From sequence record PV763136.1: 64,000 nt of DNA. One strand, given 5' to 3'. This stretch comes from Escherichia phage vB_EcoM_YN3. Every line of letters begins with the position of its first letter. Positions within the stretch are counted from its first letter, which is position 1. The position numbers and the translations under genes are program-made. This document shows, piece by piece, positions 6,662 through 7,639 of this stretch. Below the pieces are notes generated by a model. The model did no database searches, was not told the DNA's origin, and saw nothing but the letters and a program-made list of their open reading frames with translations.

Positions 6662-7639
6662 ATGAATCTTGAAAAATATTATACACCAGAAGAGTTAGAG
6701 CGCCTGCTCAAAAAATATAGACGCAAACAGAATAATGCACGGAAACGGGATATAGAGTTCAACCTGTCATGGGAAGAATACCTCCTATTTGGTAAAAAAC
6801 TTTTAGGAGATGGAGTGTGCGATTACACCCTTATACCTTTTGACATGCACACAGATGAAAACGGGCTGGGAAATCCTTTCTATCCATCTCTGGAGCGGAT
6901 AGATGATGAAGGTCCTTACTCAATTGATAATTGTTGTGTGGTGGGATTGAGGTGCAACGCTCTGAAGGACTGTCTGGTAGATAAAAAGACTGCAATCTTG
7001 ATAAAAGATAAAACTGATCGAAAAATTGTCCAGCAGATGATGCTCCACCTGAGCGAAGAGCGTATGGAGAAATTGAAAGGTGATTATACTTTTGAAGATT
7101 TCATCTTGCAATACGGGACAGAAGAAGATAAACTAGCACTATTTGACGAAGAGGAGGAAGATATGTCACCAATGCAGGACTTTAAAAATTTCATGGCTGA
7201 TCGTGCAGCCAACAAACACATTTCAGACATCGTAAACGAGACTGTGACAGAAGAAATTGAAGAACAGAACTCTGAAGAGGAAAAAGATCCTCAGGAGGTC
7301 GAAGAGGATATTACAGAAGAAGTTCCTGCACTGCCTGATGATATTGAGATTGCTAAGGCTTACACTTTCTATTGTCAAACGTTCTACGATGCAGGTATGA
7401 AAGTTGATCTGTCGTTCAGCCAATTTAAGAGTTCGTATATTCGCAAATGCTGTGCTTTAACTGGTGAACGTCTCGGAGCTGGACTTAAACCACTGTTGGT
7501 GACCGACTGGAATAAAGGTTTCACTAAAGGAAACTTTATGGTAGTATCTCCAATTATGGAGAAAGCTATGACAGATCTTATGAAGACCACCCGCATGACA
7601 ATGACCGAGTTGGCAGGTATTTTCAAACACGTTAAATAA
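6662..7639 (+). CDS. HNH-endonuclease-domain protein with long acidic linker and a degenerate C-terminal HNH-like repeat
   Basis: N-terminal motif DMHTDENG...PSLERIDDEGPYSIDNCCVVGLRCNALKD; C-terminal CCALTGERLGAGLKPLLVTDWNKGFTKGNFMVVS repeats the pattern without His; Glu/Asp-rich segment between. Start set at ATG 6662 downstream of the promoter. Confidence 0.45.
   Translation: MNLEKYYTPEELERLLKKYRRKQNNARKRDIEFNLSWEEYLLFGKKLLGDGVCDYTLIPFDMHTDENGLGNPFYPSLERIDDEGPYSIDNCCVVGLRCNALKDCLVDKKTAILIKDKTDRKIVQQMMLHLSEERMEKLKGDYTFEDFILQYGTEEDKLALFDEEEEDMSPMQDFKNFMADRAANKHISDIVNETVTEEIEEQNSEEEKDPQEVEEDITEEVPALPDDIEIAKAYTFYCQTFYDAGMKVDLSFSQFKSSYIRKCCALTGERLGAGLKPLLVTDWNKGFTKGNFMVVSPIMEKAMTDLMKTTRMTMTELAGIFKHVK

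Follow-up and report, generated by a model that had tools for sequence, protein, structure and literature searches.

Two tandem PacI-type His-Me modules, one intact-looking and one degenerate, in an early core protein of Escherichia phage vB_EcoM_YN3 and its relatives

Analysis of a 64,000-nucleotide stretch of DNA from Escherichia phage vB_EcoM_YN3 (sequence record PV763136.1; hereafter the window) drew attention to the gene at positions 6662 to 7639, whose product very probably consists of two tandem PacI-type His-Me folds (the superfamily known as HNH and also as beta-beta-alpha-metal) joined by a helical segment and a disordered acidic tether. The N-terminal copy (N module) keeps the PacI-type motif set, which has decayed in the C-terminal copy (C module). 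For the reading of the whole protein as an asymmetric pseudo-dimeric nuclease acting in host takeover, we consider the chances to be about even. The window derives from an rV5-like E. coli phage of the genus Vequintavirus, and the ~1.2 kb surrounding the gene matches 117 phage records at 90-99% identity. The gene and the parts of its product are as follows.

6662..7639, + strand: coding sequence, from ATG at 6662 to TAA at 7637-7639, 325 amino acids (aa) plus stop, as given by the list of open reading frames (ORFs) and the sequence
6686..6982, + strand: N module (aa 9-107), PacI-type beta-beta-alpha-Me fold, recognized from AlphaFold2, profiles and motif conservation
6992..7213, + strand: helical extension (aa 111-184), five helices in the AlphaFold2 secondary structure, with a predicted local distance difference test (pLDDT) value of 93-97 up to about residue 160
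7112..7336, + strand: acidic segment (aa 151-225), 27 Asp/Glu against 5 Lys/Arg in 75 residues (36% Asp/Glu)
7337..7636, + strand: C module (aa 226-325), degenerate second copy of the fold, retaining C264, T267, D282 and N291

Single-sequence searches of Pfam, NCBIfam, PADLOC and PDB with the whole protein, with each module and with the T4 protein Srd returned nothing useful. In PHROG, family 3118 ('HNH endonuclease') was matched over the full length (E 7e-110), and the N-terminal 100 aa produced weaker matches to the Srd families 4592 ('decoy of host sigma70') and 1400 ('Srd anti-sigma factor'). An exhaustive profile search collected 9,239 cluster representatives at E <= 1e-3, 90 of which reached E <= 1e-30, and the best of these matches, mostly 230-345 aa long, aligned over their whole length. 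The family alignment comprised 107 sequences, mostly at 20-40% identity, and all counts out of 107 given below refer to it. AlphaFold2, run on this alignment, returned a mean pLDDT of 89.5, with values of ~98 in the N module and ~96 in the C module and the lowest confidence at residues 191-220 (block means of 46-62). The order of elements was identical in both modules, with a long helix and then a short one, followed by two strands and a final helix, and the beta-hairpin followed by an alpha-helix that constitutes the metal finger of the His-Me/HNH superfamily was present. In Foldseek, the E-values were weak (at least 0.035), HNH domains dominated the list and PacI was returned with a probability of 1.0.

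The N module is composed of a basic helix (residues 9-28), two strands (75-79 and 91-95) and a helix (96-107), and its invariant or near-invariant residues are K22, R29, C53, Y55, E78, R79, Y86, N90, N99 and K102. The set of six formed by E78, R79, Y86, N90, N99 and K102 was retained by the N module in 106 of the 107 homologues. The end of strand 1, where His-Me nucleases carry their catalytic His, is occupied by an Arg (R79) that is invariant across all 107 sequences. The Asn of the hairpin, a structural residue (N90), is likewise present in 107/107, and the metal-type Asn of the helix (N99) in 105/107, with His in the remaining two. An acidic residue (E/D78) followed by Arg at the end of strand 1, together with a loop Tyr (Y86) in place of the His, is the arrangement that characterizes the PacI group, and it was found in 106/107.

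The same assignment emerged from profile comparisons. PacI was the best PDB match of the family profile (hmmsearch, E 0.027), and hhalign placed the N-module profile on PacI residues 31-124 with a probability of 95.1% (E 3.3e-8, 82 columns). In the alignment, PacI D92, R93, Y100, N104, N113 and K116 (numbers taken from the alignment coordinates of the family profile against the PDB match) fall on E78, R79, Y86, N90, N99 and K102, and the PacI stretch 'VDRSDSFEGYSPQNARLACFICNRIK' is aligned with 'LERIDDEGPYSIDNCCVVGLRCNALK' so that the motif columns coincide. It has been reported that in PacI, which has no catalytic His, a loop Tyr takes over this role, and an Asp and an Asn bind the single metal (PMC5714182, PMC4081073, PMC3384342). 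By alignment, E78 would correspond to the acidic residue, R79 to the Arg at the His position, Y86 to the loop Tyr and N99 to the helix Asn; N90 and K102 make up the rest of the motif, and no residue used by PacI in catalysis is missing from the N module. Neither the sequence-only profile of the C module nor the shallow Srd alignment reached PacI; the link of both to PacI runs through the N module and the structure.

Judged from these residues, the active-looking module belongs to the PacI type and not to the His-type HNHs: Arg stands where the His would be, and the loop carries a Tyr. The initial annotation had described an HNH-domain protein, and in this respect the superfamily assignment is borne out by the fold and by the PacI homology. 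The His of its 'DMH' signature does not survive the comparison, being H63, which occurs in 4/107 homologues and sits in a lineage-specific insertion that most members lack; the N module itself is histidine-less. The C-terminal repeat that had been described as lacking the His is real, but what this second copy has lost are the equivalents of E78, R79, Y86, N99 and K102, not a His. The further suggestion that it forms a pseudo-nuclease module agrees with our counts.

In the C module, the equivalents of these five residues are hydrophobic or variable. The full six-residue set was found in the C module of 0/107 homologues, and in 93/107 none of the five lost positions was kept. Out of the hairpin/helix Asn pair, the C module retains the first (N291) alone, and C264, T267, D282 and N291 are structural positions. 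On this evidence from the alignment, the C module is a pseudo-nuclease with a catalytically dead look. Its common origin with the N module was apparent when the two sub-alignments (aa 10-112 and aa 228-325) were compared, which yielded a probability of 97.9% (E 6e-13, 75 columns). Additionally, the C-module profile matched the N domain of T4 Srd in a single-target search (E 3e-10), and in BLASTP both modules aligned to the same stretch of Srd. The direct match between the modules and their shared target in Srd together indicate that the duplication is real. The two copies have the same history and met opposite fates, a contrast that speaks more strongly than any other evidence for functional selection of the N-module residues.

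Domain architectures were compared across 197 collected proteins, of which 158 have the N-C order and 31 are N-only, these coming mostly from the Srd family collection. Four are C-only, and the one of these that was examined (P0116) is a gene cut by the end of its contig, which makes it uninformative on the interaction of N and C modules. Two intact copies in N-N order occur in one protein, and the N-N-N-N order in two, namely P0145 (852 aa) and P0161 (827 aa), which carry four tandem intact-type modules at a spacing of ~195 aa and no other Pfam domain. Fusions to Pfam domains were sought in the longer relatives (351-852 aa) and none was found, the longest being these fourfold module repeats. 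PacI is a homodimer (PMC3384342), and by analogy the even-numbered tandem arrays are consistent with a dimeric working unit of this kind.

Srd of phage T4 is the only relative that has been studied, and the comparison defines how far the relationship extends. Family-to-family alignment in hhalign gave a probability of 98.5% (E 2.6e-15) over only 82 columns, corresponding to the N module, and no homology over the full length of Srd was obtained in this way. A full-length alignment by hidden Markov model covered Srd residues 6-157 and was weak through the helices that follow the N module, while the C-module profile found no match in the C-terminal half of Srd. Across 15 Srd members with 31-74% identity, E64, R65, Y72, N76, N85 and R88 are invariant, and these are the same six positions. 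The two proteins thus share a homologous N-terminal module with six invariant motif positions, and both are encoded by early genes of large virulent coliphages; unlike the present protein, T4 Srd has 248 aa and a single module, and it belongs to PHROG 1400/4592 rather than to 3118. Srd is reported to stimulate RNase E and in this way to speed the decay of host mRNA; an association with the enzyme's N-terminal half is reported as well (PMC7430671, PMC13232886, both citing Qi et al. 2015). No paper in the library searched linked Srd to the HNH or PacI fold, and PMC5714182 does not mention Srd. The 'anti-sigma factor' label carried by the gene is a domain-level transfer from Srd, and since the two proteins are not orthologues, the function of Srd is not simply transferable.

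Between the two modules, the helical extension contains a near-invariant Tyr (Y142, conserved in at least 90%), and its opening part shows a weak resemblance to T4 Srd residues 93-157. Within the acidic segment, the model places helices at 154-161 and 170-184 and no secondary structure in residues ~185-225. The linker is 76 aa long in this protein, whereas the family has a median length of 32 aa and a median net charge of about -2; the excess of acidic over basic residues ranges from -6 to +22 across the family, some linkers being net basic. The long acidic form is limited to Vequintavirus and a few other members and is rich in insertions and deletions, while the acidic character is kept among close Vequintavirus relatives. 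No similarity of the acidic segment to any Pfam, PHROG, NCBIfam or PADLOC family was detected, and in the model it looks like a flexible tether.

The regulatory context of the gene was analyzed together with its coordinates, and three further elements were delimited.

6602..6630, + strand: sigma-70-type early promoter, with -35 TTGACA at 6602-6607, a 17-nt spacer, TG at 6622-6623 and -10 TAAGAT at 6625-6630
6588..6560, - strand: divergent back-to-back promoter, TTGACT-17-TATAGT, near-consensus, for the leftward operon
7644..7660, + strand: GC-rich hairpin GGGGCC-AAT-GGCCCC with a perfect 6-bp stem, from the terminator scan (scored on the - strand)

The 978-nt version of the gene is the one annotated in the GenBank records of phages FFH2 and JohannBauhin (both curated), and many database entries carry a version of 346/347 aa that starts at TTG 6596. 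The longer form is probably an over-extension, since TTG 6596 lies 5' of the -35 box of the gene's own promoter. The + strand promoter scored 10/12 in the consensus scan, with an extended -10 TG, and transcription is expected to start near 6637. The orthologues in Vequintavirus, Seunavirus and Mydovirus all have the identical -35 box 5' of them, with a -10-like element at the corresponding place, while the surrounding sequence has otherwise diverged among the three genera. The description of the gene as the first after a consensus-like promoter holds, the promoter being of the early type and strong. It opens a rightward block of mostly small genes that have no assigned function, a pattern typical of early takeover regions. 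The -35 boxes of the two divergent promoters (window 6560-6630) are 13 bp apart, and the pair drives divergent early operons. Downstream, the hairpin (RNA fold of -17.7 kcal/mol, z -2.84) lies within the 33-nt gap before the next gene and may act as a weak terminator, an attenuator or a stem that serves mRNA processing or stabilization; the program-made ORF start of the next gene, at 7652, falls inside it. An Rfam search returned no match in or near the gene, and the ORFs on the minus strand inside it do not exceed 104 aa.

Among close relatives that share the same neighbor, the gene was found in 117 records, against 118 that carry the next gene. A broader tblastn search identified 210 phage records, spanning the Vequintavirinae and Aeromonas phages, with a single matching place in all but one of them; 200 cover at least 80% of the protein. 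Identity was 36-40% in phages of Klebsiella, Salmonella, Cronobacter, Erwinia, Proteus and Enterobacter, a group in which the Vequintavirinae are represented by, among others, Proteus phage Mydo and Escherichia phage 4MG, and it fell to 32% in one Serratia phage and ~23% in Aeromonas Plateaulakevirus. The location behind the divergent promoter is shared by the Mydovirus and Seunavirus copies of the gene. It is a vertically inherited early core gene of the rV5-like phages (Vequintavirinae). Sixteen GenBank records (MG0656xx) named 'Campylobacter phage', with C. jejuni as host, were 91-98% identical to the present phage over these genes, and their labels probably reflect contamination or mislabelling, not a true Campylobacter host. 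The labels under which databases hold the gene are four and mutually incompatible: anti-sigma factor, anti-termination protein, HNH endonuclease and type II restriction endonuclease.

The genes around it were also inspected. The next one (7652-9133, + strand), with a likely true start at ATG 7673, encodes a DUF2201 putative metallopeptidase and VWA-like domain protein (Pfam E 8e-28 and 3e-11, respectively); the name 'HNH endonuclease' that PHROG 1314 and several RefSeq records give it is apparently an annotation error that has spread. Beyond the divergent promoter lies a putative MoxR-type ATPase (2837-4021, - strand), annotated as such in phage JohannBauhin and showing here a weak AAA_14 match alone (E 3e-4, under the cutoff); this ATPase and the DUF2201/VWA-like protein may be functional partners. 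The divergent upstream gene (5620-6561, - strand) belongs to PHROG 12338, of unknown function, and has no Pfam match; many records label it 'putative alpha 1-3 fucosyltransferase', for which support is not visible. Its program-made GTG start at 6561 overlaps the - strand promoter, and the real start is probably an ATG ~14 codons further in (MANLNS...). Farther away, a cluster of five tRNA genes occupies 60865-61801 of the window on the - strand (Rfam RF00005, 39-80 bits).

Considering what such a protein might do, PacI (PDB 3LDY/3M7K), which represents 'group 20' of the His-Me fingers of Jablonska et al. 2017 (PMC5714182), offers the closest enzymatic comparison. PacI, with 142 aa, works as a homodimer, has two Cys4 zinc sites in each subunit and cuts a palindromic 8-bp site. 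The phage protein shows no conservation of the zinc ligands and carries both 'subunits' on a single chain, the second of them catalytically degenerate; a 115-aa helical and acidic insert separates the modules, and the gene is an early phage gene, not part of a restriction system. The presence of one intact and one dead module argues, we infer, against symmetric double-strand cleavage in the manner of PacI. We propose that the N and C modules would take the parts that two separate subunits play in a PacI-like homodimer, giving a single-chain asymmetric enzyme with one active site. Its cut would fall on one strand, as a nick, or on single-stranded nucleic acid, and would not be a symmetric double-strand break, while the dead C module would supply a binding surface. 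Devolved His-Me proteins such as SMAD MH1 and the nuclease-like domain of Enpp offer an analogy, in that the C module has lost its catalytic residues and is nevertheless conserved, which suggests that it has a binding or scaffolding role (PMC5714182); in contrast to those stand-alone recruits, the dead module here is a paralogue lying in tandem with an intact-looking module on one chain. The protein would be made immediately after infection and would act on host nucleic acid in the course of takeover. Its target may be RNA or the RNA-decay machinery rather than DNA, since T4 Srd, the only studied relative, shares the N module and accelerates RNase E-dependent decay of host mRNA; the early timing and the Srd precedent together point to host nucleic acid or the RNA-decay machinery. 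An asymmetric pseudo-dimeric nuclease and a nucleic-acid-handling host-takeover factor are, in our assessment, the most likely alternatives. From its sequence, catalytic activity of the N module could fall either way, and we weigh a role in host shut-off or takeover as equally balanced.

Several observations weigh against a pseudo-dimeric nuclease. The Cys4 zinc sites of PacI are not kept: among the equivalents of C63, C66, C109 and C112, C53 alone is conserved, its partners being T56, G95 (consensus Thr) and C98 (consensus Ala; Cys in 10/107). The only experimental data on a relative, those on Srd, point to a protein-protein effect on RNase E and not to cleavage by Srd itself. Conservation of the 'catalytic' residues could also reflect the binding of phosphate or metal with no cleavage involved. 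Finally, the predicted template modelling score of the AlphaFold2 model is 0.58, so that the relative orientation of the two modules is not fixed by it, and the pseudo-dimer is for this reason deduced from the architecture.

Among the competing explanations, a non-catalytic adaptor resembling Srd deserves the most weight, although we hold it to be somewhat doubtful. Such a protein would hasten host mRNA decay by attaching to RNase E's catalytic half or by delivering RNA to it, and would use the motif for RNA or protein contacts only. The homology of the N module to T4 Srd and the early position of the gene among takeover genes fit this explanation, as do the hosts of the listed phage records, which are all Gammaproteobacteria, bacteria that have RNase E. 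The reported association of Srd with the N-terminal half of RNase E and the reported stimulation of this enzyme (PMC7430671, PMC13232886) favor it as well. However, the homology to Srd is limited to the N module (~82-150 residues) and the C-terminal part of Srd is unrelated to the C module, and the retention of the full six-residue set beside its total loss in the sister module is not predicted for a pure adaptor. This last asymmetry also bears on a quite unlikely alternative, in which the two His-Me modules would control transcription or antitermination as a non-catalytic nucleic-acid-binding regulator, like SMAD MH1: loss of the catalytic residues is what devolved His-Me domains show, and it is seen in the C module but not in the N module. 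The recruitment of His-Me folds as DNA binders (PMC5714182, PMC3384342), the basic helix 9-28 and the 'anti-termination' label of some records agree with a regulator, but this label, like 'anti-sigma', carries no evidence in the records. The anti-sigma factor or sigma-70 decoy, which was the original guess for Srd and is the commonest GenBank label of the gene, draws on the transfer of that label to many records and on the matches to PHROG 4592 and 1400; we regard it as very improbable and set it aside as the principal explanation.

Two further explanations concern the distribution of the gene and its linker. A free-standing homing endonuclease would be expected from HNH superfamily membership and from the PacI-like HNH genes of lactococcal phages, which are sporadic and thought to home (PMC12724721). 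Against this, the gene is present in the same place in 117 of 118 close relatives, persists as a single syntenic copy in other genera, where identity is 36-40%, and stands behind a conserved promoter of its own; no insertion/deletion polymorphism was seen. Sporadic presence was not observed (117 gene-bearing against 118 neighbor-bearing records), and homing, which we consider very improbable, was rejected. Nor did any clear full-length homology to a characterized homing endonuclease emerge, the outcome that the initial annotation had named as refuting its own reading; the distribution is that of a core gene. That annotation had also compared the Glu/Asp-rich segment with DNA-mimic anti-restriction proteins. 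The acidity is real (27 of the 75 residues at 151-225 being Asp/Glu), is kept in close Vequintavirus relatives and accompanies early expression, but the mimic role found no support, the segment being predicted as disordered and riddled with indels, short and sometimes net basic elsewhere in the family, and devoid of matches in the four family collections searched. The DNA mimics known to us are folded, with ordered arrays of charge. A folded, conserved acidic array was not found here, given the low pLDDT, the variable length and charge and the lack of a family match, and a mimic of the Ocr/ArdA type, very unlikely in our estimation, was rejected.

What is new in this protein is a zinc-less fused tandem of an active-looking and a dead module in the small PacI group of His-Me nucleases; it is otherwise of a known kind, and the advance in classification is incremental. 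A bolder extension of the nuclease reading, which we judge unlikely, holds that this family and T4 Srd are both Tyr-dependent His-Me endonucleases, the present protein being a single-chain pseudo-dimer, whose initial cuts in host transcripts or nicks in the host's DNA would create 5'-monophosphate sites feeding RNase E. His-Me nucleases leave 5'-phosphate ends, and such ends activate RNase E, which would offer a speculative bridge from the nuclease reading to the adaptor reading. If this were true, the 'stimulation of RNase E' by Srd would be due in part to an unrecognized phage nuclease, and the widespread early genes labelled 'anti-sigma factor' would be host shut-off nucleases.

Some members of the large coliphage group in which this gene is part of the early core are used in therapy and biocontrol work. 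The tandem PacI-type pair, the motif that is invariant in Srd and the decayed sister module yield a hypothesis that can be addressed by mutation of Y86, R79, E78 and N99, and which bears on the mechanism of phage-induced host mRNA decay, including how Srd stimulates RNase E.
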